Origin: Lentisphaerae bacterium RIFOXYA12_64_32 | Lineage (GTDB): Bacteria > Verrucomicrobiota > Lentisphaeria > Oligosphaerales > YB12-FULL-65-16 | Direction: 5' to 3' | NCBI GenBank assembly: GCA_001803235.1 | Contig: MHBL01000459.1 | Coordinates: 4,840 to 68,839 of the forward strand | Length of the DNA: 64,000 bases | Shown here: piece by piece, positions 41,928 to 56,441 of the stretch | Position numbering within the stretch: the stretch's first letter is position 1 | How the letters are laid out: every line of letters begins with the position of its first letter | Notes under the pieces: model-generated | What the model saw: the letters and a program-made list of their open reading frames with translations, nothing else | Told to the model about the DNA's origin: nothing | Databases searched by the model: none | Translations under genes and position numbers: made by a program

Positions 41928-42260
41928 CGGTTGAGGTTGCCTAGGCTGAAGGTGGAGAACGCTGGCGGTCCGGGTCGGGCGATACCAAGGCCGTCACCCA
42001 GCTCGCAGTGCACCGAATGCACCCGTGCCCGGCCTGATCTTCTTCCTTCGTGACTACTCAGGTAGACAGGAGTCAGAATGGGGACGCCAGTAGCGACAGT
42101 CGTGGACTCAGAAGACGCTGTTGCTGCCGATTTGCCGCCGCTAATCAAGGCGTTCCGCACGTTGCTGGACGCTGTTGCACTTTCCATTCTGAATTCTGAC
42201 TCCTGGCTTCTGACTACCTGAGTGGTTACCTTCCCTCAGCCTATCCACCTGAAGAATTCC
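41924..42260. mobile_element. Decayed type D MITE (GTRACTACTCAG family) containing nested element E
   Basis: Ends GTGACGGTTGAGG and CCTGAAGAATTCC; CCTAGGCTGAAGGT and CAGCCTATCCACCTGA match 14430-14605; TSD CGCGATGG/CGCGATTG (7/8). Confidence 0.65.
42050..42229. mobile_element. MITE, GTRACTACTCAG family, interior type E (TTCTGAC/TCCTGRC heptamers)
   Basis: 16-bp TIRs GTGACTACTCAGGTAG and CTACCTGAGTGGTTAC; TSD CTTCCTTC/CTTCCCTC (7/8). Confidence 0.8.
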
Positions 42261-43482: not shown

Positions 43483-43618
43483 GACCTGTGACGAAAGCGG
43501 TGGCTCGGCGCGTCCCGCGCCGAAGTGGGGTGCGTCCGCCGCGGCCGGTCCCCGGCCGAGGGCCTCGGGCCGGGACGGCCTCGAGCACCCTGCTGCGGTC
43601 CCGGAGGTCCCGCGCCAC
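43483..43618 (+). repeat. Type B hairpin repeat (shortened copy)
   Basis: GACCTGTG remnant, then GTGGCTCGGCGCGTCCCGCGCCG...GAGGTCCCGCGCCAC. Confidence 0.75.
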
Positions 43619-43667
43619 TGCCCGAAGTAGCCCCGTCCGTAACCGTATAGATAGGGACCGAACCGCT

Positions 43668-45524
43668 GTGTGTGGCATTGCGGGAATCATTGGCAGCGCT
43701 GACGAGAAGACCCTCGGCAGGATGGTCGACGCGTTGCGGCACCGCGGCCCTGACGACCGGGGGACGAAGTGCTTTCCAGAGCACAAGGCGGCGCTGGGGC
43801 ATTGCCGTCTGTCGATCATCGACCTGTCGGCGGCCGGGCACCAGCCCATGTCATGCCCGGACGGCCGCGTCTGGATTACGTACAACGGCGAGGTGTACAA
43901 TTACCGCGAACTGCGCCGGGAACTGGAGGGCAAGGGCCACGCGTTCCGGACGCAGACCGACACGGAAGTCGTGCTGGCGGCGTACGTCGAGTGGGGCGAG
44001 GAATGCCTACCGCGCCTGCGCGGCATGTTCGCCTTCGCGGTTCTCGACCTGCGACGCGGCGAACCGCGCGTTTTTCTGGCCCGGGACCGGTTCGGCATCA
44101 AGCCCCTCTACTACGCAGAAACCTCGCGTGGTCTAGTTTTTGCCTCCGAGGTCCGTGCCTTTCTCGCCAGCGGGCTGGTCGAGCGCCGGGCGGATCGGCA
44201 GGCTGTCTGGGACTACCTCTCGCTCGGATCGGTGCCGCAGTCGGGCACCATCCTGGCGCAGGTCAAGGCACTGCCGGCGGCGCACGCCATGCGCGTGGAC
44301 GCCGCCGGTCGAGTGGTGCGAACCTGGCGTTACTGGAACCTGGCGGAGTCCGCAGGCCGCGAGCCGATCCCCGTCGTCACCCTCGATGATGCGGCTCGGA
44401 ACCTGCGGGCGCGGCTCGAGGAGGCAACCCGCCTGCATATGATCGCCGACGTGCCGGTCGGCGCGTTCTTCAGCGGCGGCATGGACTCCACGGCGGTTGT
44501 CGCCCTGATGAACCGGATCGGCGGGAAGCCGGTGCGCACGTTCACCGTCCGGTTCGCCGACCTTGGCCCCGGCCGGGACGAGGGGGACTGGGCGCGTCGC
44601 GCCGCGGCCGCCGTGGGCGCCGAGCACCACGAGGTCGCCGTTACGGCCACGGACGTGGCCGCCCACTGGGATCGGATCATTGAGGCGCTCGATCAGCCTA
44701 GCATCGACGGGGTCAACACGTTCTTCGTCTCGAAAGCCGCGGCCGGGGCGGTCACGGTCGCGCTTTCCGGCTGCGGCGGCGACGAACTTTTCGCCGGGTA
44801 CCCGCATTTCGAGAGCTACCGCCGTGCCGCAGGACGTGCGACACGTGTTCCGGCAGGACTTACCGCCCGCGATGTCACGGGCAGGTTGCCGGCAGCCGTC
44901 CGGCGGCGCCTGCTGCCCCTGCTTGCCCCTGCCGAAAGGCTGCACGCGGTGCGCAGCCTGGCGTCCGAGGCCCAGAAGCGGCACCTGCTGTCGGGCGAGT
45001 TCCTGGCCGGATGGGCGCCGCGGAACTCCGCCGCCAGGTTTGAAAGCATGGTGCGGCCGGGGCTGGACCCTGTGGCCCAAATGAGCTACGCTGAGGTCTC
45101 ATCCTACTTGGCCGACACGCTCCTGCGGGATACCGACGCGATGAGCATGGCGCACTCGCTCGAGGTCCGCCCCGTGTTGCTCGACCACGTACTGGCGGAG
45201 TTCGCCTTCGCCCTGCCCGCGGAACTCAAGCTGGACCGAGGAGTGGGCAAGCTGGTGTTGCGCCGGGCGGTCCGGGACCTGCTGCCCGACGAAGTACAGA
45301 CCCGCCCCAAAGTCGGGTTCGAGTTCCCGTTCCACTCCTGGTTGGCGGGTGCTTTGCGGGAGCGCCTCCGGGACACACTGGCCGGCCAGGCCGCCAAGGC
45401 GGTGTTCCGGTCGGGCTGGCTCACTCGCTGCGCACGTCCGCCGCGGTCGGACCGTGACGCTGGCGAGGCTTGGCGCACTCTGATCCTGCTCGGATGGCTG
45501 GAGAGAACACGGTGTGATCTCTGA
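43668..45524 (+). CDS. asnB: Asparagine synthase-like glutamine amidotransferase
   Basis: GTG start then Ntn Cys (CGIAG), HRGPD, GHQPM, YNGEVYN, RDRFGIKPLYY, SGGMDS, SGCGGDELFAGY, MAHSLEVR. Confidence 0.92.
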   Translation: MCGIAGIIGSADEKTLGRMVDALRHRGPDDRGTKCFPEHKAALGHCRLSIIDLSAAGHQPMSCPDGRVWITYNGEVYNYRELRRELEGKGHAFRTQTDTEVVLAAYVEWGEECLPRLRGMFAFAVLDLRRGEPRVFLARDRFGIKPLYYAETSRGLVFASEVRAFLASGLVERRADRQAVWDYLSLGSVPQSGTILAQVKALPAAHAMRVDAAGRVVRTWRYWNLAESAGREPIPVVTLDDAARNLRARLEEATRLHMIADVPVGAFFSGGMDSTAVVALMNRIGGKPVRTFTVRFADLGPGRDEGDWARRAAAAVGAEHHEVAVTATDVAAHWDRIIEALDQPSIDGVNTFFVSKAAAGAVTVALSGCGGDELFAGYPHFESYRRAAGRATRVPAGLTARDVTGRLPAAVRRRLLPLLAPAERLHAVRSLASEAQKRHLLSGEFLAGWAPRNSAARFESMVRPGLDPVAQMSYAEVSSYLADTLLRDTDAMSMAHSLEVRPVLLDHVLAEFAFALPAELKLDRGVGKLVLRRAVRDLLPDEVQTRPKVGFEFPFHSWLAGALRERLRDTLAGQAAKAVFRSGWLTRCARPPRSDRDAGEAWRTLILLGWLERTRCDL

Positions 45525-45527
45525 CTT

Positions 45528-45766
45528 GTAACTACTCAGGTACCCCGATTGGGAGACCCCTGTGGCCTTGTGCCACAGGTGAATCAGGTTCACTGGCTAC
45601 AACGCCGGCGCTTCTCCCCTCCCGTATCCCGCCCGCCGCCGGCGGGCGGGATACGGGAGAGTGGGGGTGGCTTCGGGCTAGCTGGCGAACCTGATTCACC
45701 TGCCACGCAAGGTGGCAGGGGTCTCCAAGACGAGACGGCGGATTCCGCGCCTAGCTGAGTAGTTAC
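45528..45766. mobile_element. MITE, GTAACTACTCAG family, interior type F (arm-hairpin-arm)
   Basis: TIRs GTAACTACTCAG and CTGAGTAGTTAC; perfect TSD TCTGACTT at 45520-45527 and 45767-45774; about 40-bp inverted arms at 45552-45591 and 45687-45726; perfect 19-bp central stem at 45619-45659. Confidence 0.88.
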
Positions 45767-45902
45767 TCTGACTTCAACGACAAGCCGGCGCCTCAGCAGT
45801 ACGGACCGGCGGGCGAACCGGAGAACGGCGTGGGAACGTGTGGTGATCAGGCAGCAGGGCCCATTCAGCCTCGCCGATAGTATTGGTAAATGCAGAATAG
45901 TC

Positions 45903-45931
45903 TTGACTAATTCGCATTTCTACTGTATAAA
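45903..45931 (+). promoter_or_regulatory. Near-consensus sigma70 promoter, probably leaderless transcript
   Basis: TTGACT at 45903-45908, 17-nt spacer, TATAAA at 45926-45931; ATG at 45937 with no SD sequence. Confidence 0.65.
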
Positions 45932-45936
45932 TACAC

Positions 45937-47076
45937 ATGATTCGGTGGCGGGAAAACCAGGTACGGCAGGATCTCGCGAAGAAACTGGTCTTCTTGATTG
46001 GCCCGCGTCAGGTCGGCAAGACCTTCCTGGCGCGCCAGATAGCCGCGGGATGGAACGCGGTGTATCTGAACTACGACAGCTTCGCCGATCGCGAAGTCAT
46101 TGCCAAGATGCGGTGGCCCGCTGCGGCTGAACTGGTCCTTTTCGACGAAATCCATAAGCTCGACGGTTGGAAGCAGTATCTCAAAGGGGTATACGACACT
46201 CGCCCTGCACATCAGCAGCTTCTGGTCACGGGGAGCGCCCGCCTGGACACCTTCAGACAGGGAGGCGAATCCATGGCGGGGCGGTTCTTCACCCATCACC
46301 TTATGCCGCTGACCCCGTGCGAACTCCGCCGCGTTGAAAACGTGCCTCTCGACCTGCGCAAGGCGGAGCGACTCATTACCCGCGGGGGCTTTCCGGAACC
46401 GTTCCTGGCCGAGACCGATGTTGAGGCGGACCGCTGGCGGCGCGACTATGTGGATGGGTTGATCCGGGAAGACATTCTCGACTTCTCCAACCTCCACGAC
46501 CTGCGCTCGCTGAAGTTGGTTCTTGAACTCCTGCGCCGCAGGGTTGGTTCGCCAGTGTCCATGTCCTCCATCGCCCGCGATGCCGCTTTGGCTCCCAACA
46601 CGGTCAAACGCTACCTTGAAGTATTCGAGGCGCTGTGCATCGTTTTCCGCATCTTTCCGCATTCGCGCAATATCGGCCGCTCGCTGCTGAAAGAGCCCAA
46701 AGTGTACTTCTACGACACAGGGCTGGTCCTTGGCGACCGTGGCGTCCGGGTAGAGAATCACGCGGCGGTGGCCTTGCTGGCCCATGTCTTCGAGTTGCGG
46801 GACCTGCAAGGCGCGGACGCCGAGCTTCGCTACCTCCGCACCAAGGAGGGACGCGAGGTGGATTTCTGTGTCACCCGGGACGATTCGCCGGTTCTCATGG
46901 CTGAGGTGAAGCTCTCCGATCCGGAGCCGGACCGCAGTCTGCGGTGGTTCCATACCACATTCGGCATTCCGGCGGTACAACTTGTCCACGACCTGCGGCA
47001 GGACGAAGACCACAACGATATCGCGGTAAGGCGTCTCAATCCCTGGCTCGAAGAGATAGATGCCGTATGCCGATAG
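45937..47076 (+). CDS. AAA+ ATPase (AAA_14 + DUF4143-type)
   Basis: Walker A GPRQVGKT, FDEIHK, VTGSA, ESMAGR, GGFPE, PKVYFYDTG, EVDF, EVK. Confidence 0.85.
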   Translation: MIRWRENQVRQDLAKKLVFLIGPRQVGKTFLARQIAAGWNAVYLNYDSFADREVIAKMRWPAAAELVLFDEIHKLDGWKQYLKGVYDTRPAHQQLLVTGSARLDTFRQGGESMAGRFFTHHLMPLTPCELRRVENVPLDLRKAERLITRGGFPEPFLAETDVEADRWRRDYVDGLIREDILDFSNLHDLRSLKLVLELLRRRVGSPVSMSSIARDAALAPNTVKRYLEVFEALCIVFRIFPHSRNIGRSLLKEPKVYFYDTGLVLGDRGVRVENHAAVALLAHVFELRDLQGADAELRYLRTKEGREVDFCVTRDDSPVLMAEVKLSDPEPDRSLRWFHTTFGIPAVQLVHDLRQDEDHNDIAVRRLNPWLEEIDAVCR

Positions 47077-48788
47077 CGAAACCCGCCGCCAACAGGTACG
47101 GCGCCTCCACGCCTGGCGTGCCGGTCATCGCGGTCGCGTGCGGATTCGTCGCCGTGGCCCTGTCGCGGATCCAGGAGCCGGTCGCCCAGGACGAGATCAA
47201 CTGGCTCTTCACCGCCGATGTCTTCCTGAATGAGGGGCACCGAACAACATCCCCGGTCGCGATGTTTTCGCCGCACCTGTACGTCAACCTCGTCTGGCTG
47301 TGCCTCAAGCTGTTCGGCCCCGGAGTGGCGGTGGCCCGCATTCCGGGCGTCCTCGCCTGGGTCCTGACTCTGGCGCTGGTGTGCGTCGTCGTCCGACGGT
47401 CGCGTCCAGCGGACGCCGGGACCGCACCGTGCCAGGCGTTCGTGGCCGTGCTGCTCTGTGCGTCGCTGCCTGCCGCAGTCCAGGCAGCGGCCATCATCGA
47501 CATCGACAACACGGTACTGGTCCCGGCCACCGTGGCGCTTTGTTACGCCTTCGAACGCCTGCTCAAAGAACGATCGGTTGCCTGGCACCTGGCATTCGCC
47601 CTGCTGATGTGTTTGGCGCTGTGGTGCCGGACCACGACACCGTTGGTGCTCATGCCCGTGTTTGTGGCCGTCGCTGCGCTGAGCGGCGGCGCTGGTGCGG
47701 CGGTCCGCGTCGGCGGCTGGGCTGCGCTCGGGGGTGCCGCATTCGCCGGCACCTGGCTGGTGTACTGCAAGGCGTTCGGGTTTAACGTCTGGGGGCCGCT
47801 GTCGTACACCGGGGGCTCACTCGTCTACCGGAGCATCGGGTCCGGTGGTTTCTCGGTTTCATGGTTCGCTCAGAGCCTGGTGTACCTGGTCCTCTGGACC
47901 GGCATGCTGACCCCCGTCCTGATCCTGTGGATCACGGGTTCGCGCCTGCGCTCGTGGTGGCGGGAACGCTGTGTCCGGCCGGAGGATATCTACCTGCTGG
48001 GCGGCTTGGCTTTGGTGATTGGTTACACGTTCGTGGGCGGCGCCGTGTACGGGTTTCCGAAGCATCACTGCCCGGGATTCCCCCTGCTTTGCATCGCGGC
48101 AGGCCTGGCGATGCCGAAGGCGGGCGGGTTGTGCGGCCGGCGCCTGTGGCTGCTGGTCCTGGCCCTGGCTGCCGCGGCGGCCCTGGTGCAATACCTGGTT
48201 GTGGGCGACCTGTTGCGCGTCATCCGTTGCGATCTCCGCACCGCAGTGCTGGAGCATGCTTCGGTTCGGCCGTTCGTCGTGTCTGCGGCCGTGCGGGCGA
48301 TCCTGGGATTCGGGATGTGCGCAGGGCTGGTCGGCCTGTCCAGCCGCGTCCACGGCGGGCGGGCGCTCCTGCTCCCGGTCGCCCTCGTCGTGGTGGTTCT
48401 GGGGGTGAACATGGGCTTGGTCGTCTTGCAGCAGGTCCGTCCCTACTACAAGGGCTACAACTACGGCGGGTCCGGCACCGTCGAGACAGCGCGGCGGCTG
48501 GATAAATGTGTGCCCGCCGCGCAGGAGATCATAGCCCCCTCCGAGGTGGTCTATTACCTCCACCGCGAGAGGCGCTATCACGAGAACGAGTTCTGGGACA
48601 GCCCCGAACGGCTGCGGGTTGCCTTGGAGGATCCACGCACCGGCGCGTTTGTCATCAGCCCCATGACGCACACCGTGGCGCAAGTCCGACAGACGACGGG
48701 CGATGGCGAGGTCGCGCGGTTGCTGCGCGAGCAGTTCATGACGGAGCGGATCGGTTCGTTCCGGGTCTCGACCAGGAAGCACGAATGA
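47067..48788 (+). CDS. Polytopic membrane protein, GT-C (PMT-like) candidate
   Basis: QDE loop after TM1, HLY.L.W...FG....ARIP, many hydrophobic segments, soluble C-terminal tail. Confidence 0.6.
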   Translation: MPIAKPAANRYGASTPGVPVIAVACGFVAVALSRIQEPVAQDEINWLFTADVFLNEGHRTTSPVAMFSPHLYVNLVWLCLKLFGPGVAVARIPGVLAWVLTLALVCVVVRRSRPADAGTAPCQAFVAVLLCASLPAAVQAAAIIDIDNTVLVPATVALCYAFERLLKERSVAWHLAFALLMCLALWCRTTTPLVLMPVFVAVAALSGGAGAAVRVGGWAALGGAAFAGTWLVYCKAFGFNVWGPLSYTGGSLVYRSIGSGGFSVSWFAQSLVYLVLWTGMLTPVLILWITGSRLRSWWRERCVRPEDIYLLGGLALVIGYTFVGGAVYGFPKHHCPGFPLLCIAAGLAMPKAGGLCGRRLWLLVLALAAAAALVQYLVVGDLLRVIRCDLRTAVLEHASVRPFVVSAAVRAILGFGMCAGLVGLSSRVHGGRALLLPVALVVVVLGVNMGLVVLQQVRPYYKGYNYGGSGTVETARRLDKCVPAAQEIIAPSEVVYYLHRERRYHENEFWDSPERLRVALEDPRTGAFVISPMTHTVAQVRQTTGDGEVARLLREQFMTERIGSFRVSTRKHE

Positions 48789-48902
48789 CTTGGCCCGCGG
48801 CGGGCACGGTCGGAGCCGCGTTGGTGCCCGCAGCGGATGGCCTTCCCTTCTCCCAGGTGCCCCGCTCTGGGCATGTCAGAACCGGCAGAGGCAGCATCCC
48901 GC

Positions 48903-49667
48903 ATGATGGATAGCGGAAACGAAGGCGAGGCCGTGCAGAACGCGATCAGCCGTGACTTGGCGGTGCTTCGCGGAACTGCCAACTACCGCGAATGGATTCA
49001 TCGGATATGCGTCCCGTTCATCGGGAAACGGATCCTCGAGGTGGGCGCGGGCATTGGCAACTACACGGAGAAGCTCCTCGGGGCTGACTGCGTTTTGGCC
49101 ACCGATGTCTATCCCCCCTATGTCCGGGAATTGGCGCGACGGTTTGGCTCGGCCGCGAACGTCAAGGTCTCGCAGCTAGACGTGTCGTGCATTGAGCCGC
49201 AGGCCGCCGCCCGCATCATGGCAGAGCGGCTGGATACGGTTCTGATGTTCAATGTCCTCGAGCATATTGCGGATCAACCCCCATGCGTCCGCAGCCTGCT
49301 CTCCCTGATCGAGCCGGGAGGACAAGTCGTTGTCGTTGGCCCGGCGATCCCTTTCCTGTTCAACAGTCTCGACCGTGCATACGGCCACTATCGCCGGCAC
49401 ACGGTGCAGGAGTTCCGTGACCTTGAACGGGAAATGCAGTTCAGAGTTGTCCATGCGAGATACTTCAACATTGTCGGGGTGGCCGGCTGGTGTCTGAATG
49501 GGGCACTTCTCCGCAGAGCACAGCTCTCTGTGTTCCAGACACGTACGTTTGACCTTCTCGTTCCGCTGCTGAGGAGAGTGGAGAGTGTGTTCCCGGTCGG
49601 CTTTGGCCTGTCAGTGGTTGTCGTCCTGCGGAAGGTGTCCGGCGCCTTGCCGCCGGAAGTGACGTGA
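48903..49667 (+). CDS. Class I SAM methyltransferase
   Basis: ILEVGAGIGNY, NVLEHIADQ, PGG, GHYRRHT; start uncertain (48837, 48873 or 48903). Confidence 0.82.
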   Translation: MMDSGNEGEAVQNAISRDLAVLRGTANYREWIHRICVPFIGKRILEVGAGIGNYTEKLLGADCVLATDVYPPYVRELARRFGSAANVKVSQLDVSCIEPQAAARIMAERLDTVLMFNVLEHIADQPPCVRSLLSLIEPGGQVVVVGPAIPFLFNSLDRAYGHYRRHTVQEFRDLEREMQFRVVHARYFNIVGVAGWCLNGALLRRAQLSVFQTRTFDLLVPLLRRVESVFPVGFGLSVVVVLRKVSGALPPEVT

Positions 49668-49691
49668 GGCATGTTCCGAAGGGAGTGACGA

Positions 49692-50591
49692 ATGCAGGAT
49701 ACATGCAGGCTCTGTGGGGGATCCCACACCTTCGTGCGATACAGACTCGGCAATCATACGGTCCGTCGCTGCAGGGACTGCGCCTTCATGTGGCTGACGC
49801 CGGTTCCCACTCCCGAGGAACTGCGAGCCGTCTATGGGGAGGGTTACTTCGCAAACGATCATTTCATGAGCGGACAGGACTCGGATATCTATGGGTACTA
49901 CGACTACCTGGCCGAACGGTTCGATCGACAGAGCGGGTATGTTGACTTCCTGAGAGAGGTCCGGTCTGGGGGGTTCACGGGCGGCGAGAAGCCAGCGCGA
50001 TTGCTGGACATCGGGTGCGGTTTTGGGTTCCTGCTGGATGTGGCCCAAGACGAGGGTTTCCAGGTCGAGGGTGTCGAGTTCAACGAGCGGGTCGTGGCAA
50101 CGGCCAAGGCAAAGTACAGTTTCCCCATCTACTGCGGGGATGTGGCGGACTTCCCAGGCAAGGGTTATGATGTGATCACCATGTTCGATGTGATCGAACA
50201 CGTTCTGGACCCCTTTGCGGTGATAGAGAAGTGCTGCAGTATGGTCAGAGTGGGGGGACTCGTGGTCATCGTCACGATGGATTCGGACAGCCCGGTGTCG
50301 CTGCTGTTCGGCAAGCGTCTAGAGGACTTCCGAAGGGTCAGGGAGCATCTGACTTTCTGGACGAGGCGGAGTATTGGGCGACTCTTGGAGGAGCGGGGGT
50401 TCGGCGTGAAGCGAATCCGCTACTACGGACACACATTCAAGCTGGGGTTCCTGGCCAAGAGAGTTTCCATGTGCAGCGCCGCACTGGGGTGGCTCCCGGC
50501 GAAAGCGGTTGCGGCGTTCGGTATAGCCGATGTGCGGATCAGGCTGAACCCCCTCACGAAGATGATGGTCCTTGCGGTACGGGAGCGGTAG
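49692..50591 (+). CDS. Class I SAM methyltransferase with an N-terminal Zn motif
   Basis: CRLC...CRDC, LLDIGCGFGFLL, YDVITMFDVIEHVLDP, EHLTFW. Confidence 0.85.
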   Translation: MQDTCRLCGGSHTFVRYRLGNHTVRRCRDCAFMWLTPVPTPEELRAVYGEGYFANDHFMSGQDSDIYGYYDYLAERFDRQSGYVDFLREVRSGGFTGGEKPARLLDIGCGFGFLLDVAQDEGFQVEGVEFNERVVATAKAKYSFPIYCGDVADFPGKGYDVITMFDVIEHVLDPFAVIEKCCSMVRVGGLVVIVTMDSDSPVSLLFGKRLEDFRRVREHLTFWTRRSIGRLLEERGFGVKRIRYYGHTFKLGFLAKRVSMCSAALGWLPAKAVAAFGIADVRIRLNPLTKMMVLAVRER

Positions 50592-50622
50592 GCTGCGGGC
50601 ACACTGCGAGAGAGGTGAGACC

Positions 50623-51834
50623 ATGGTGCGGCTTTCGAATAGCGACGATTGGACAGGGGGGCGGTCTCGGGAGGGTTGGCTGGGCTATCCGCCCCGGGTG
50701 TGGGCGGGGTTGCTGGTTGTCGGCTTTTTTCTGCAGGTTGCGGGGATGCTGTATGCCAACGGCGGGGTCTTCCATGCGGGGGATTCAGAGCAGTACATCG
50801 GAAGTGCCGACAATGTGTTGCACGGTCTGCCCCCCGTGGGATTCCGCAGTGCGTACATTGGGTACGTCATGGTCGTGGCGACGTTCAAGTTCCTGGGGCT
50901 TGGCCTGCCGGGTGTCGTGGCGTTTCAGGTGGTTCTCGCCTTGGTGACTGCAATGGCCGTCTTCGATCTCGGCAGGAAGGCGGGGGGAATGGGGGCGGGC
51001 TACATGGCGGCGGCCTTGTTCCTCTGGAATCCGGATGTCGTCAGGTGGCACGTCTACATTCTGTCGGACTCAACCTACATGTCGATGGTGGTTCTGACGG
51101 TGTGGAGCGCCCACCGTGCCACAGAGCGGCGGACGCCGGGCGCACTTGCCATCGCTCTTGTGCTTCTGTGCGCGGCGACGCTGATCCGTCCACACGGCTG
51201 GGTACTCCCGCCAGCGGTCTTCGGGTCCTGGGCGATCCTTCTTCCCACGAGTCAGTGGAAGCGAGCCTTCTTCCTCGGGGCGGTAGTCGTAACGTTCCTT
51301 CTCCTGATGGTGTGTGGATCGTACTTCAAGGAGAAGAGAAAGGAGGCGACGGACTCGGTCCAGCGGCTGTTCTGCGGGCATGTGTTCGGCGCTCCCCCGA
51401 ATCCGTGGGCGGTGAGTATGCCCGTGTCTATGCCCGGTGACGACAGGGAGGTCGCCCGATACATCCTCAGGCACCCCCTTGCCTGCGCCAAGCTGGGGTT
51501 GGCAAGGATCGGAGCCGAAGTCGTTCACGGTCGCCCGTACTTCTCAGTTCGTCACAACCTGTTCATCGTCGTGGTCTACCCGGCGCTCTACCTCCTGGCT
51601 CTATGGAGTTGTTTTCGGCTCTGGCGTACTCCCCTGGTGCTTCTCGTCCTGATGGTCGCAACTGGCCACAGTGGCGTTGTTGCCCTGACGTTTGCCGATA
51701 TCGATGGGCGAACCGTCCTTTACATGTACGCGCTGTTGGCAGTCCTGGCGTCGTTGTCTCTGGCCCGCTTGGTGGGGCGGACTGATCTCGGCCCGCATGA
51801 ACCGGCACCGTCCGCCCCGAATCGTCAGGCATAG
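50623..51834 (+). CDS. Polytopic membrane protein, GT-C candidate
   Basis: GDSEQY loop, GY..F...F, ILSDS, LIRPHG, many TM segments; GAGGTG RBS. Confidence 0.6.
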   Translation: MVRLSNSDDWTGGRSREGWLGYPPRVWAGLLVVGFFLQVAGMLYANGGVFHAGDSEQYIGSADNVLHGLPPVGFRSAYIGYVMVVATFKFLGLGLPGVVAFQVVLALVTAMAVFDLGRKAGGMGAGYMAAALFLWNPDVVRWHVYILSDSTYMSMVVLTVWSAHRATERRTPGALAIALVLLCAATLIRPHGWVLPPAVFGSWAILLPTSQWKRAFFLGAVVVTFLLLMVCGSYFKEKRKEATDSVQRLFCGHVFGAPPNPWAVSMPVSMPGDDREVARYILRHPLACAKLGLARIGAEVVHGRPYFSVRHNLFIVVVYPALYLLALWSCFRLWRTPLVLLVLMVATGHSGVVALTFADIDGRTVLYMYALLAVLASLSLARLVGRTDLGPHEPAPSAPNRQA

Positions 51835-52003
51835 CGCTCTGCCTTTGCGCCGGCCCATCGCGTGTCCTGCCTGTGCGGCAGACGGACGATTTGGCGGGTG
51901 AGGACGGCGGGGATCTCGCACCGGGAAAGAGGGTCGAGGTCTCCCCAACGGCAGTCGGTCATCTGGTGTTGTGGCTGCAGTCCACCAACGGAGATACTGC
52001 CCG

Positions 52004-53335
52004 TTGCGAATCCTTCAAGTCAACACCGCCGACTCGGGCGGGGGCGCCGAGGGGTCGGCCATGCGGCTGGTCGAGGAGTACCGGCGGCGTGGCCACGATT
52101 CCTGGCTGGCGGTCGGGCGCAAGTATGGCGTCGATCCCGACGTCCTTGAGATTCCGGTCGCCCCGGCGCCGGGCGCAGCGGGGCGACTGCTCCAGGGGCT
52201 GGCCACGGGCTTACGCCGGCGGTTTTCGGGCAACAGTGTGGTGCGGGCCCTGGAACGACGGTCGCTGCAGATCGCCGACCCCGAACGCCGCCGCGCCTGG
52301 TGGCGCGGCCACGAGGTCTTTCACTTCCCGGGCTCGCGACAACTGCTGCAGTTGTCGCCGCGCGTGCCGGACATCGTGCATTGCCACAACCTGCACGGTT
52401 GGTATTTCGACCTGACCTTCCTGCCGGAACTGAGCCGGCAAGTGCCCGTGGTCCTGAATCTGCGCGACGCCTGGCTGCTCACCGGGCACTGCGCGCACTT
52501 TTTCAACTGTGAACGCTGGAAGCACGGCTGCGGCCAGTGTCCGGACCTCCAGACCTATCCCGCGATCCGACGCGACGCTACGGCCGCGAACTGGCAGCGC
52601 AAGGCCGAGATCTATGCCGCCAGCCGGCTTTACGTCACCACCATCTCGCAGTGGCTCGCGGACTGTGTGCGCGAGTCCATGCTCAAGCCCATGGAGTGTC
52701 GCGTCATCCCCAACGGCATCGACCTGGATGTGTTCCGGCCCGGCGACAAGGTGCAAGCCCGACAGGCGTTGGACTTGCCTCTGGACCGGCGAATCGTGCT
52801 CTTCGCAGGGACAGGCCTGCGCCAGAACCCCTTCAAGGACTATTCGACCGCGCGGCGCGCCATGGCGCTGGCTGCCGCACGGGCCAGCGCGGCGGACGGG
52901 GGGCTGCTGTTCCTCTGTCTCGGTTCGCACGGTCAAACCGAGGTGGACGGCCCGCTGACCGTACGGCATGTGCCGTTCGTGCGGAGTCCGCAACGGATGG
53001 CGGAGTACTACCGCGCCGCCGACGTCTACCTCCATGCGGCCAGAGCCGAGGCGTTCGGCAAGGCGGTCACCGAGGCCATGGCGTGCGGGACCCCGGTGGT
53101 CGCCTCCCGCGTCGGCGGCATTCCCGAACAGGTGGTGGACGGCCAGACCGGGTTCCTGGTCCCCGTCGGCGACGGCGACGCCATGGCAGAGCGGCTCACC
53201 GGATTGCTGGCCGACCCTGGCCTGCGGGCAGAGGCGGGGTGGCGCGCGGCGCAGCGCGGCGCGACGTTCTCGCTGACACGCCAAGTCGACAGCTTCCTTG
53301 CCTGGTACGAGGAGATCATCGACCTGTGCGGGTAA
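52004..53335 (+). CDS. GT4 glycosyltransferase (WcaC-like)
   Basis: [68 protein letters not shown]; the stop codon is supplied by a MITE TIR. Confidence 0.9.
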
Positions 53336-53581
53336 ATCCTGAGAGAGAAGAGGCCCCACCGTGGACGCCAGGATGCGCCTGTTCGTAGTGGGCTCGCAGT
53401 GCGCGGAACGAAGTGGAGCGCCAAGAGCCCATCCGGCGCGTTGCGGCGGTCTGGCGCGGGGATGGTGTCTTGCCCGGCGGACAACCGCCGGGACTGCGAC
53501 ACCACTACGAGCGGCGCCGCGACCGATGCCTGTTCGCACGAGGGCGTCATCCCGCGCGGCTGGATCTACCCGTACAGGTCG
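53320..53581 (+). mobile_element. MITE, CGACCTGTGC family, interior type A
   Basis: TIRs at 53320-53339 and 53562-53581; TSD GAGATCAT/GGGATTAT (6/8, both transitions); interior homologous to 9411-9794. Confidence 0.85.
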
Positions 53582-53776
53582 GGGATTATGGCCGCCACAA
53601 GACGCGCTTCGTAATGCCTCGCCGCGCCTCCGGTCTTGAGTTCCGGTCCCGGTGCGGTACCTTCACTGGGCCGTTCGCACTTGCGGTTCAGCCAACGTTC
53701 CGAGTCGGGTTACTGGGAACACAACAGGTCCAAGGCGTGCGGCAGGTGTGGTTTCACAACTGAGAAGGTCCTGAGC

Positions 53777-54790
53777 TTGATCAACATCGCGGTTTTGGGC
53801 TGTGGACACTGGGGTGGGAACTATCTGCGCCTGGGCAGCGCTGCGGAGGGAGTCCGACTCGTTGCCTGCGCCGACGCCAGCCAGGAGCGCGTGGCGGCGG
53901 TGCGGCGGATGTATCCCGAGGTCGAGGCTTCGACCTCGGCGTCCGACATTCTGGCCAGGGACGACATCCAAGCCGTGGTGATCGCTACGCCCACGGAGAC
54001 CCACTACCTGTTGGCCAGGCAAGCATTGGAGTCCGGAAAGGACGTCTTGTGCGAGAAACCACTCACCGCTTCCGTCGGCGAGGCGGCGGAGCTGGTGCGG
54101 ATATCGCAAGACCGGAACCGGATCCTGATGACTGGGCACATTTTCCTCTTCAACCCAGGGATTCGGAAGGTGCGGGATTGCATCACCGCGGGTGAATGCG
54201 GGAAGCCCTGCTACCTGCACTCCGTCCGCACGAACCTCGGCCCGTTCCGGCGTGACGTGAACGTCGTCTGGGACCTGGCGCCCCACGATATTTCCATCTT
54301 CTCATACCTGCTGGGGGCACAGCCGTTCCGGGTCTGGGCCAAGGGCGAATCATTCCTTCAACCGGGCATTGAGGACGTGGCGTTCATCACGCTGGCCTAT
54401 CCGGACAAGGTACTAGGCCATATGCACGTCAGTTGGCTGGAGCCCAGGAAGGTGCGCCAGATCACGGTCATCGGGGACAAGAAGATGGTTGGCTGGGACG
54501 ACCTCGACCCCGTCGGCCCTGTCCGCGTCTACGACAAGAGCGTTGGCCGGGACCGGTTCTACGACAACTTCGGCGAGTTCTGCCTCCTGGCGCGCGAAGG
54601 AGACATCACGATTCCGCGAGTGACCCTGGGCGAGCCCCTGAAGGCGGAATTCGCCCACTTCCTCGATTGTGTGACCACCCGCAAGGCGCCCGTCACGGAT
54701 GGCGCCAACGGGTTGCAGGTGGTCAAGGTGCTCGCCGCGATTCAGCGCTCGATGCAGCAGGATGGCTTGCCACAGGAGGTGGATGCATGA
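53777..54790 (+). CDS. Gfo/Idh/MocA oxidoreductase (WbpB/GnnA-like)
   Basis: IAVLGCGHWG, IATPTETH, VLCEKP, WDLAPHD, SWLEP; TTG start inferred. Confidence 0.88.
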   Translation: MINIAVLGCGHWGGNYLRLGSAAEGVRLVACADASQERVAAVRRMYPEVEASTSASDILARDDIQAVVIATPTETHYLLARQALESGKDVLCEKPLTASVGEAAELVRISQDRNRILMTGHIFLFNPGIRKVRDCITAGECGKPCYLHSVRTNLGPFRRDVNVVWDLAPHDISIFSYLLGAQPFRVWAKGESFLQPGIEDVAFITLAYPDKVLGHMHVSWLEPRKVRQITVIGDKKMVGWDDLDPVGPVRVYDKSVGRDRFYDNFGEFCLLAREGDITIPRVTLGEPLKAEFAHFLDCVTTRKAPVTDGANGLQVVKVLAAIQRSMQQDGLPQEVDA

Positions 54791-56196
54791 CGACTGAAGC
54801 GGCTGACGCGGTGTCTCCCGCTGACCCCTTGGTCTCTGTGGGGCCGGGCAGTCATGTTGACCCCCAGGCAACCGTCGGTAGTGTTCCCGGCCGCAAGGTT
54901 GCCAGCCTGGTCGGCAGCATTGGCCGCAACGCGACGATCCGCTCGGGGACCGTGATCTATGCCGGGACGCAGATCGGCGAGGGGTTCGAGACGGGGCACC
55001 ACGTCGTCATCCGGGAGGAAAACCGGATCGGTGACCATTTCCGCATATGGAACAACTCGACCGTCGATTACGGCTGCATCATCGGCAACGGCGTCCGCAT
55101 CCACTGCGGCGTGTATGTCGCGCAGTACACAACGATCGAAGACGATGTGTTCATCGCCCCTGGCGTGATGATCGGCAACGACCCGCATCCGATATGCACG
55201 CGGTGCATGAAGGGGCCCACCATCAAGCGGGGTGCGAGAATCGGCCTGAACGCCACGCTGCTGCCCCGCGTGATCATCGGCGAGGGCGCTCTGGTGGGTG
55301 CGGGTGCGGTAGTCACCCGGGATGTGCCGCCCGGGGCGGTCGTTGCCGGCAATCCTGCCAGAGTCATTAACTCCGTGGCCAATCTGACCTGCAAAGCCGG
55401 GATCCTGGATCGGCCCTATGGTCAGGTCAAGTGCGAGCCGCCCCCGGCCGGGACGGCGCGCGGCGCGACAACGTCCGGCGCGCGGGCAATCCTCGTCCTG
55501 CCGGCCCTCAACGAAGTGGGGAAGATCAGCCGCGTCATCGATCGGACCAAGGCCCTGGAGGGCGGGTTCATCGAGGAAATCCTTGTCGTTGACGACGGCT
55601 CGACGGACCGCACGGCCGACGAGTCGGCGGAGCATGGCGCCAAGGTCATCAAGCACCCGAAGAACATGGGGGTTGGGGCCGCCATCCGCACCGGGATTGA
55701 CTATGCCATTCAGAATCAGTTTGATATCGTCGTGGTCATGGGCTCCGACGACCAGGACAATCCGAGCGAGATTCCGCGGGTCCTCCGGCCGATCCTGCAT
55801 GACCACTTCGTCTTTGTCCAAGGGTCCAGATACCTGGCGGGCGGCGCACGGGTCAACATCCCCCTTTTCCGACGGGTCACCACGGCCATCTACTCGGTGC
55901 TGTTCAAGACCATCATTCGGTTTCCCGTGACGGACGGCACCAACGGGTTCCGTGCCTTCCGCACCTCCGTGCTCAAGGACCGGTCCATCAATCTGTGGCA
56001 GGCGTGGCTGGACCACTACGAGCTCGAGCCGTACCTGTTCTATAAGGTCATCGAAACGGGGCTTCCGGTCACCGAGGTGCCGGTGACGAAACGGTATCCC
56101 AAGGGGAAAGTCGGCTATACCAAGATGGTCCCGATCCTCGACTGGTGGAGCATTCTCCGGCCGCTGGTCTACCTCCGCCTGGGTCTGCGCAAGTAA
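54787..56196 (+). CDS. Hexapeptide N-acetyltransferase fused to a DPM1-like GT2
   Basis: LbH repeats (IG..A.I..G..I), VAGNPAR; linker; then LVLPALNE, VDDGSTD, GSDDQDNP, VQGSRY, TDGTNGFRAF. Confidence 0.85.
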   Translation: MTTEAADAVSPADPLVSVGPGSHVDPQATVGSVPGRKVASLVGSIGRNATIRSGTVIYAGTQIGEGFETGHHVVIREENRIGDHFRIWNNSTVDYGCIIGNGVRIHCGVYVAQYTTIEDDVFIAPGVMIGNDPHPICTRCMKGPTIKRGARIGLNATLLPRVIIGEGALVGAGAVVTRDVPPGAVVAGNPARVINSVANLTCKAGILDRPYGQVKCEPPPAGTARGATTSGARAILVLPALNEVGKISRVIDRTKALEGGFIEEILVVDDGSTDRTADESAEHGAKVIKHPKNMGVGAAIRTGIDYAIQNQFDIVVVMGSDDQDNPSEIPRVLRPILHDHFVFVQGSRYLAGGARVNIPLFRRVTTAIYSVLFKTIIRFPVTDGTNGFRAFRTSVLKDRSINLWQAWLDHYELEPYLFYKVIETGLPVTEVPVTKRYPKGKVGYTKMVPILDWWSILRPLVYLRLGLRK

Positions 56197-56197
56197 G

Positions 56198-56421
56198 CGA
56201 CCAGTGCAATACCCCGACCCCACCGGCCTTGTGCCGGTGGTGAAGGAGGTTGGTTTGGCTAAGCGGACCGTCCCCCGCCCGGATTTTCCTCTTCTCCGGT
56301 CGGACCGCGGCCGCTGTCCGACCGGAGAAGAGGGGGGCCACGGATCGACCAGCCGTTGGACCTGCTTCACCACCGGCGCAAGGCCGGTGGGGTCGCCAAG
56401 CCGTCCCTATTGCACAGGTCG
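56198..56421. mobile_element. MITE, CGACCTGTGC family (CAATA subtype), with an F-like arm-hairpin-arm interior
   Basis: Ends CGACCAGTGCAATA and TATTGCACAGGTCG; TSD CAAGTAAG/AAAATAAG (6/8); 30-bp inverted arms at 56216-56245 and 56365-56394; 18-bp central stem at 56288-56333. Confidence 0.75.
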
Positions 56422-56441
56422 AAAATAAGAGGGCCTCTCGC

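Follow-up and report, generated by a model that had tools for sequence, protein, structure and literature searches.

In E. coli and Pseudomonas, repetitive extragenic palindromic (REP) sequences, their inverted doublets (REPINs) and the REP-associated tyrosine transposase (RAYT) form a system (Nunvar 2010; PMC3116915, PMC3333891, PMC3479197) that is the closest functional analogue of the repeats described here. We analysed a 64,000-nucleotide stretch of DNA (hereafter the window; C459:4840-68839, where C459 is contig MHBL01000459.1) from Lentisphaerae bacterium RIFOXYA12_64_32, whose assembly comprises 10.6 Mb at 65% GC in 503 contigs. Two small elements in the window, e1 (45528-45766, 239 bp) and e2 (56198-56421, 224 bp), each carry two inverted, hairpin-forming arms. 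As in the REP/REPIN-RAYT system, these arms are short, high-copy extragenic hairpins with conserved single-stranded flanks, found both as inverted doublets and clustered in tandem or in mosaics; a single-copy Y1/HUH gene is flanked by such hairpins, and the stems vary between lineages and still pair. Each of the two elements is probably a chimera, made of a miniature inverted-repeat transposable element (MITE) shell of the DDE type and a REPIN-like head-to-head hairpin doublet around a central palindrome, such doublets having been captured by, and spread with, unrelated shells. The hairpin itself predates the shells and is independent of them.

Other described systems share single features with these elements. 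Quentin et al. 2018 (PMC6006769) defined a rare class 3 of TnpAY1 proteins, a "REPtron-like" group from Planctomycetes and Acidobacteria whose atypical flanking hairpins have a CnGA foot and possibly reach high copy numbers; the proteins are of ~178 aa and carry the motifs NHVH, W[TA] and YV[VI][AENY]EQ. Di Nocera et al. 2013 (PMC3733652) reported Y1 genes flanked by terminal inverted repeats (TIRs), named TIRYT/TIRtrons, together with many tyrosine transposases with flanking repeats in a planctomycete. The IS200/IS605 insertion sequences (IS), such as IS608 and ISDra2, and the MITEs derived from IS66 complete the set with which we compared the window elements.

Both elements contain the inverted arms and central stem that a preliminary description of this DNA had reported. 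In e1, the left arm lies on the plus strand at 45555-45583 (GACC-CCTGTGGC-CTTGT-GCCACAGG-TGAA, stem TGTGG/CCACA) and the right arm on the minus strand at 45695-45723 (GACC-CCTGCCAC-CTTGC-GTGGCAGG-TGAA, stem TGCCA/TGGCA). Between them, a GC-rich palindrome occupies 45619-45659, with a run rich in pyrimidines on the 5' side and one rich in purines on the 3' side; 45619-45638 pairs with 45640-45659 around a 1-nt loop. The arms of e2, at 56216-56244 on the plus strand (GACC-CCACCGGC-CTTGT-GCCGGTGG-TGAA) and 56366-56394 on the minus strand (GACC-CCACCGGC-CTTGC-GCCGGTGG-TGAA), both have the stem ACCGG/CCGGT, and the central palindrome CCTCTTCTCCGGTCGGACCGCGG/CCGCTGTCCGACCGGAGAAGAGG at 56288-56333 joins 56288-56310 with 56311-56333, a 23-nt palindrome that is 96% complementary. 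A perfect central stem of 18-19 bp had been claimed for both elements; this holds for e2, with 18 perfect pairs, and has to be corrected for e1, in which the perfect stem is 20 bp. The pattern GACCCC-N5-CCTTGYG-N5-GGTGAA occurs four times in the window, against 0.00 expected from 100 shuffles.

The real hairpin of the arm has 8 bp, formed by CC+N5+C paired with G+N5+GG around the 5-nt loop CTTGY, and it is flanked by single-stranded GACC (5') and TGAA (3'). The general motif is GACC-CC-N6-CTYGY-N6'-GG-TGAA, and the arms also share the 3' extension TGAAnnAGRTY, which the search pattern does not impose. With their common flanks, loop and 3' extension in a motif that is rare, the arms are homologous, as the preliminary description had supposed, and not generic GC-rich hairpins. 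We found 201 exact arms genome-wide (loop CTYGY allowed) and 297 within three mismatches. Counted strand-wise, the genome holds 980 perfect CC-N6-N5-N6'-GG hairpins, 314 of them with a CTYGY loop, as against 0-2 for each of five control loops. The arm foot reads CAGA, CCGA or CGGA, also TAGA, GAGA or GCGA, and is followed by CC.

The arms fall into stem classes A (CGTGG/CCACG), A' (TGTGG/CCACA), B (TGCCA/TGGCA), B' (TGCCG/CGGCA) and C (ACCGG/CCGGT). The left arm of e1 is thus of the A type (A') and its right arm of the B type, and both arms of e2 are of the C type. Head-to-head pairs at a spacing of 139-165 nt number 80, of which ~50 are A/B heterotypic and ~20 C/C. The preliminary description had read the difference between the left and right stems of e1 as a compensatory change; since ~50 of the 80 pairs, in doublets of the related main family, combine an A-type with a B-type arm, the difference is the fixed layout of a family and did not arise within this copy. 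As 20-40 nt imperfect palindromes that are extragenic and of high copy number, the arms match the description of REPs, and the doublets that of REPINs, in which two inverted REPs form one long hairpin. Unlike REPs, they have no 5' GT[AG]G tag at the foot, which reads (n)nGACC before the stem CC, and their loop CTYGY is conserved; unlike REPINs, the doublets have a spacer of ~110 nt with a long palindrome of its own.

The hairpin of the arm is the one that flanks the genes of a Y1/HUH transposase family of ~265 aa. Through a profile search of the genome for Y1_Tnp, we identified a 263-aa open reading frame (ORF) with one intact copy, at C362:151-939. Hairpins of the form CC-GGCGCC-CTTGC-GGCGCC-GG lie on both sides of this gene, and an arm with the GACC and TGAA flanks follows 140 nt downstream (1077-1105). 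Among loci retrieved by the arm pattern alone, homologues of the encoded protein lay beside arms in a Planctomycetota metagenome-assembled genome (MAG; L078), in a Verrucomicrobiota MAG (L031) and, as a gene remnant only, in L059. Four of 41 relatives (G000, G001, G002 and G007) encode strong homologues, and in G002 the gene lies between two exact arms, the only ones of that genome. Loci reached via the protein alone gave the same picture: hairpins of 8 bp with a CTYGY loop were present on both sides of the gene in 11 out of 11 (L160-L170) and beside it, often several in tandem, in L154, L155 and L157-L159. The genes in L132-L134 and L138 are also flanked by CTYGY-loop hairpins. Taken together, such hairpins stood beside the Y1 gene in 22 out of 23 loci, with L156 as the sole exception.

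Gene and arm also occur together across genomes. In a phylum sample of 301 genomes, arms were present in 13, the gene in 18 and both in nine (Fisher's exact p = 6e-10), and all genomes with at least five arms (8 out of 8) had the gene. In most of the genomes that have it, the gene is present as one close copy, and the hairpins are dispersed independently of it. Other Y1 genes of the present genome (C60, C172, C468, C294 and others) were considered as partners of the arms and rejected, as these arms do not flank them.

The exact motif was found in many other genomes, with stems that differ and are nevertheless paired. These include Planctomycetota (Pirellulales, Isosphaeraceae-like MAGs and Kuenenia), Verrucomicrobiota, Kiritimatiellia, Lentisphaeria/Victivallales, one acidobacterial MAG and one Elusimicrobia MAG; a reversed control pattern gave 0 matches in every genome searched. 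REPs are species-specific, whereas this hairpin motif is conserved across phyla. The nnGA-CC that precedes the arms and the occurrence in an acidobacterial MAG may recall the class 3 hairpins, which we compared by description only. No other sampled genome has more than 37 exact arms, so that the 201 of the present genome exceed the next highest number about five times.

The preliminary description had asked whether the arm also occurs with no TIR, and it does: at C364:27054-27303, where a doublet lacks any inverted ends, in the relatives G007 and G024, and beside Y1 genes. In G007 and G024, the arm-centre-arm layout lies in intergenic DNA, with the arms tandemly multiplied on each side and no terminal repeats seen. 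The tandem periods of the relatives, 46-74 nt, brought CRISPR-like arrays into consideration; we rejected these, as the arms form inverted doublets beside Y1 genes and there are no CRISPR repeat ends.

The hairpin evolves under pairing constraint, as had been proposed. We examined covariation in 79 distinct arms from many genomes, in which three pairs are fixed by the search pattern and cannot vary. All five free stem pairs (5 out of 5) changed on both sides, in 155 cells. Pairing was kept in 94.9% of cells, compared with 72.4% after shuffling (0 out of 500 shuffles reached the observed value) and 37-55% with slid partners. Of the arms from other genomes, 80% were perfectly Watson-Crick paired, against 6% when their halves were shuffled. 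On the strand that reads from GACC to TGAA, mismatches were G:T in 31 cases and A:C in nine (p = 7e-4), an excess that fits a fold of one strand, which predicts it, and not a double-stranded palindromic protein site, which does not.

Such constraint could also arise if the hairpins were kept mainly for a function in the host, as reported for E. coli REPs. They would then be a structural signal in RNA or DNA, for example one that protects mRNA 3' ends or guides processing between the genes of an operon, or else be bound by a nucleoid or topology protein, with the Y1 gene as their origin only and the shells as carriers. Within a glycan operon, both window copies are placed precisely after the stop codon of one gene and before the following gene, where they would be co-transcribed; the whole elements fold strongly as single strands (z = -10.5 for e1 and -13.6 for e2 relative to shuffles), loop and flanks are conserved across phyla, and tolerance of G:T suits RNA as well as single-stranded DNA. 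We nevertheless consider this explanation unlikely. The transcript of a doublet would have one arm in sense and one in antisense, with the loops CUUGY and RCAAG, and a scan of the window against Rfam gave 0 matches at the gathering score. The tight and universal adjacency to one transposase family is, moreover, what a selfish or co-evolving pair of enzyme and substrate predicts.

The protein family has at least 951 members of ~265 aa, which carry the JGI label "REP element-mobilizing transposase RayT". Pfam Y1_Tnp (PF01797) and the NCBIfam IS200 model each match two stretches of the protein; NF033573 (IS200) scores 44 bits against a cut-off of 55, and NF047646 (REP_Tyr_transpos) 15.5 bits against a cut-off of 80 (E = 0.012). 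An AlphaFold model (mean pLDDT 93.6, pTM 0.90) has two lobes with the same beta-beta-alpha-beta-beta-alpha-beta-alpha order, and the best matches among solved structures, each to one lobe, were ISDra2 TnpA, Sulfolobus IS200 TnpA and IS608 TnpA, with E. coli TnpA_REP (RAYT, 4ER8) lower. Five residues (Y120, Q124, H211, H213 and Y257) are invariant in 44 homologues. The N lobe has an IS200-like tyrosine motif, LGDN...Y[IV]xxQ (Y120..Q124), and Q-x-[TF] in place of HUH; the C lobe keeps the HUH motif as PDH[LV]H (H211, H213) and ends in GTF[GS]EY with the second invariant tyrosine, Y257. The protein may be a fused pseudo-dimer with one composite active site, and in appearance it is an IS200 TnpA dimer made as a single chain.

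This arrangement sets the enzyme apart from the described ones. It shares with IS200/IS605 the fold of TnpA, the HUH and Tyr motifs, a gene with hairpins to either side and evidence consistent with recognition of one folded strand. Unlike IS200/IS605, in which the protein is a homodimer and the autonomous IS is multi-copy with different hairpins at its left and right ends, the protein here is a fused two-lobed chain, the gene is single-copy and the hairpins multiply alone. We saw no tnpB beside the Y1 gene among the called genes of L155-L159. The ~265-aa, two-lobed enzyme with its IS200-like Y..Q motif also differs from class-2 RAYTs, which have YI..NP. It resembles class 3 in belonging to a Y1 group of Planctomycetes and Acidobacteria, and differs from it in length and in having PDH[LV]H and Y[IV]xxQ, the latter in a separate N lobe.

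The shells around the doublets are of another kind. The left TIR of e1 (GTAACTACTCAG, 45528-45539, plus strand) is of the IS66 type (GTAA-N4-TCAG), and the right TIR (45755-45766, minus strand; plus-strand reading CTGAGTAGTTAC) matches it at 12 out of 12 positions (15 nt at 93%). A perfect 8-bp target-site duplication (TSD), TCTGACTT, flanks the element at 45520-45527 and 45767-45774. In e2, the left TIR (CGACCAGTGCAATA, 56198-56211, plus strand) belongs to the abundant CGACCTGTGC end type and matches the right TIR (56408-56421, minus strand; plus-strand reading TATTGCACAGGTCG) at 13 out of 14 positions; the 8-bp, A-rich TSD is now imperfect (6 out of 8), with CAAGTAAG at 56190-56197 and AAAATAAG at 56422-56429. 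Both elements thus have the features of MITEs, namely TIRs, a TSD, small size, no ORF and multiple copies, with ~6 copies of the e1 type, ~20 of the e2 type and ~54 of the main family in the genome. The e2-type copies have 8-bp, A-rich and partly decayed duplications.

At least five types of shell in the genome bear arms. The main family (~54 full copies of ~290 bp, many with 8-bp TSDs) consists of GTAATGCGTCAG, 16 nt, a B arm, the central palindrome, an A arm, 37 nt and CTSACGCATTAC. Further types are the e2 shell, with the terminal sequence CGACCTGTGCAATA; F3, with GCTAGTGCTCGGCCGCCAGAAGT..., which looks like a decayed element of the e2 type enclosed by a further shell; F4, with TAGGGCTATGTACTTGACTCAACC; and the mosaic end modules of the main family, whose types (ii) and (iii) assort independently on the two sides and run into further repeats. 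The outer sequence of F4, "TTGACT...", was rejected as the promoter of a small RNA, as the same 24 nt are inverted at the other end and form a terminal repeat. In the main family, the modules GTAATGCGTCAG, CGCGAGTAACATGGGAG... and TCTTGGTTCCGGCTACGCCGGGTTAGGAG combine freely on both sides (C18:10297, C174:93 and C335:18046), and the latter two continue into more repeat units, which gives an onion-like nesting of palindromic repeats.

The preliminary description had seen one interior within two TIR families and, in that, the exchange of cargo between two shells. A similar interior does occur in different shells, and to that extent the idea stands; the interiors of e1 and e2 belong to different sub-lineages, and the arm is confined neither to two families nor to particular ends. 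A swap of one arm-hairpin-arm cargo by recombination between the GTAACTACTCAG and CGACCWGTGCAATA families would account for the three-part layout and the homologous arms common to e1 and e2. We regard it as very unlikely, because the two interiors are related only via arms and layout: they align over the arms and ~15 nt only (74-78% identity), their stems are A'/B and C/C, and their central stems cannot be aligned. The e1 interior is instead nearest to the GTAATGCGTCAG main family (more than 100 matches, 72-76% identity over 172 nt), with only ~6 occurrences of an e1-like interior between GTAACTACTCAG ends, and the e2 interior is closest to F3-shell and C148-type elements. The module is also older than either shell, since further families of the order carry it, as do other phyla.

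Among MITEs that end in the same sequences, the majority are without an arm. The genome holds ~2,600 copies resembling the CGACCTGTGC end, and the arm was absent from 80 out of 88 CGACCTGTGC elements (88 being the paired elements with a duplication), 42 out of 49 GTAATGCGTCAG elements and 8 out of 9 GTAACTACTCAG elements. The end GTAACTACTCAGGTA is also found next to interiors of at least four further kinds, so that a single end type goes with several interiors unrelated to each other. Hexamer runs such as (GTCAGA/GCCAGA)n, (GGGTTC)n or (GGCTGA)n likewise form interiors bordered by the end GTGACTACTCAGGTA/GTAACTACTCAGGTA, one of them at 42050-42229 of the window (C459:46889-47068), and solo ends of the GTAACTACTCAG type occur on C459, some of them in the window.

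IS66 ends begin with GTAA, and IS66 elements make 8-bp target duplications. The e1 shell, with 5'-GTAA ends and an 8-bp duplication, agrees with an origin among IS66-derived MITEs, and we identified seven matches to PF03050 (DDE_Tnp_IS66) in the genome. The ends on the IS66 contigs read GTAAGAGTTCAG, GTAACCGTTCAG, GTAAGCGTTCAG or GTAACTTCTCAA; they share the GTAA-N4-TCAG type with e1, and none is identical. We found no arms in the contigs with IS66 transposases and no IS66 copy in the genome with exact GTAACTACTCAG or GTAATGCGTCAG ends. Because most same-end MITEs and the IS66 contigs are without arms, the shells are ordinary ends of DDE-type MITEs (in e1 and the main family, ends resembling those of IS66) and are not defined by the arm. 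Like IS66-derived MITEs, e1 and the main family have GTAA ends, 8-bp duplications, small size, no ORF and many copies, in a genome with IS66 transposases; unlike them, they have an interior that is a REPIN-like module unrelated to IS66 sequence.

These counts bear on the least probable alternative, in which the arms are subterminal binding sites of a DDE transposase (cf. Mu, Tn7 and IS21) and the palindrome reflects a dimeric protein on double-stranded DNA and not a folded strand: more than 85% of the arms here do lie 4-50 nt inside recognisable terminal modules, in inverted orientation, and a dimer's palindromic site would also give "compensated" changes, yet unrelated end types share the arm, most same-end MITEs and the IS66 transposase contigs lack it, other genomes have it without inverted ends, in tandem arrays and beside Y1 genes, and only one strand shows the excess of G:T over A:C, all of which makes such sites highly improbable. 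Nor do the arms bound an autonomous IS, a candidate that we rejected: arm pairs 1-6 kb apart hold a LacI-type regulator, an ammonium transporter and an S41 peptidase, and no transposase.

For the favoured reading, in which each element joins a MITE shell to a REPIN-like doublet, we propose the following mechanism. In single-stranded DNA, the strand that reads GACC...TGAA would fold into the 8-bp hairpin; the Y1 enzyme would recognise the hairpin shape, the loop and the conserved single-stranded flanks and would process the folded top strand, which could be why the stems covary with loop and flanks fixed. Doublets would have been enclosed by, or inserted into, several unrelated MITE shells, whether through insertion, enclosure between two ends or nesting. 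They would now be copied mainly by the DDE transposases of the shells acting in trans, and copying by this route may be why the number of arms here is so exceptional. REPINs are mobilised by a single-copy RAYT and leave no target duplication; here the Y1 gene is again single-copy, and the doublets lie inside DDE-type MITE shells with duplications.

Several observations weigh against this reading. The hairpins adjacent to the C362 gene have the stem GGCGCC and the flanks CCGCCC/AGCG, and only the arm at 1077-1105 has GACC and TGAA. Nine of the 18 gene-bearing genomes have no exact-pattern arm, although arms with variant flanks may be present. The 31 G:T and nine A:C mismatches include copies related by descent, and the high identity of arms within the main family is partly an ascertainment artefact because the arm motif was the criterion by which copies were chosen. 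We found no e1 or e2 shell that was "empty". The assembly also contains no 0.8-4 kb element with CGACCTGTGC ends and a duplication that could be their autonomous partner; because the assembly is broken up at exactly these repeats, full-length partners may be absent from it. That the Y1 protein binds and cuts the arms is a prediction, as is any continued use of the MITE-borne doublets as its substrates. The doublets could have entered the shells by insertion or by becoming flanked by two ends, or they could descend from one ancestor.

A wider proposal joins three statements, and as a whole we put it forward tentatively, as somewhat less likely than not to hold in every part. First, a REP-type system with one conserved hairpin and an undescribed single-chain, two-lobed Y1 nuclease (a fused pseudo-dimer with a C-lobe HUH and an N-lobe tyrosine) would extend across the Planctomycetes-Verrucomicrobia-Chlamydiae (PVC) group. 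Second, at least five DDE MITE shells, unrelated to one another, would have captured REPIN-like doublets in the present genome. Third, the resulting chimeras would be movable both by single-strand Y1 "peel and paste" and by double-strand DDE cutting or copying, and the palindromic doublets may seed new MITE families. In a full-text literature search, we found no description of the GACC-CC-N6-CTYGY-N6'-GG-TGAA motif, the two-lobed protein or REPIN-like doublets in DDE MITEs with duplications, which is no proof of novelty.

What had appeared as a "shared cargo" oddity has become a testable pair of enzyme and substrate, with a fixed loop and flanks, a freely covarying stem and a compact two-lobed HUH protein represented by over 900 sequences of Planctomycetota, Verrucomicrobiota and allies. 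Knowledge of REP/RAYT biology comes almost only from Proteobacteria, and a motif that spans phyla contradicts the usual picture of species-specific REPs. The motif also provides a natural series of covarying stems from which to learn how hairpins are read by Y1 enzymes, and a single-chain HUH enzyme directed at a defined hairpin could serve as a sequence-specific tag for single-stranded DNA. REPIN-like doublets nested in DDE MITEs would be one mobile element hitch-hiking on another, which may explain the repeat load of this genome and its fragmentation into 503 contigs. Dozens of contigs start or end inside an arm or ~90-120 nt away from one (for example, C6:8, C55:13, C218:2, C260:6 and C474:4), and the arm repeats are probably a main cause of that fragmentation.

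The genome hosts several REPtron-like systems, since the Y1 genes on C172 and C214 have hairpins of their own. At C172:9547-10144, a RAYT-like gene of 160 aa lies between inverted CCCAGGG-CAACG-CCCTGGG hairpins; at C214:1054-2698, a two-lobed distant homologue of 294 aa is flanked by CCACGGG-CTTGA-CCCGTGG hairpins. A second class of 8-bp hairpins with a CTYGY loop and other flanks (GCGCCG-CC-N6-CTYGY-N6'-GG-GGCGAC) has ~75 perfect copies, with the stems GCCCGG, ACGGGC, ACCGAG and others (for example, at the right flank of C362:5432 and at C366:55040-55095), and is located in other repeat modules that adjoin the main family.

Both window elements occupy very short intergenic gaps within a surface-glycan operon. 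The TGA stop (45522-45524) of the asparagine synthase gene (ORF 43488-45524, Asn_synthase) lies inside the left TSD copy of e1, and the TAA stop (56194-56196) of the hexapeptide/GT2 gene inside the left 8-mer of e2; the DegT aminotransferase gene starts 21 nt downstream of e2 (56442). Both insertions thus hit stop codons, the stops now lie in the left TSD copies, and the native gene ends are retained. Insertion of e1 and e2 widened the intergenic gaps inside the operon by ~230 bp.

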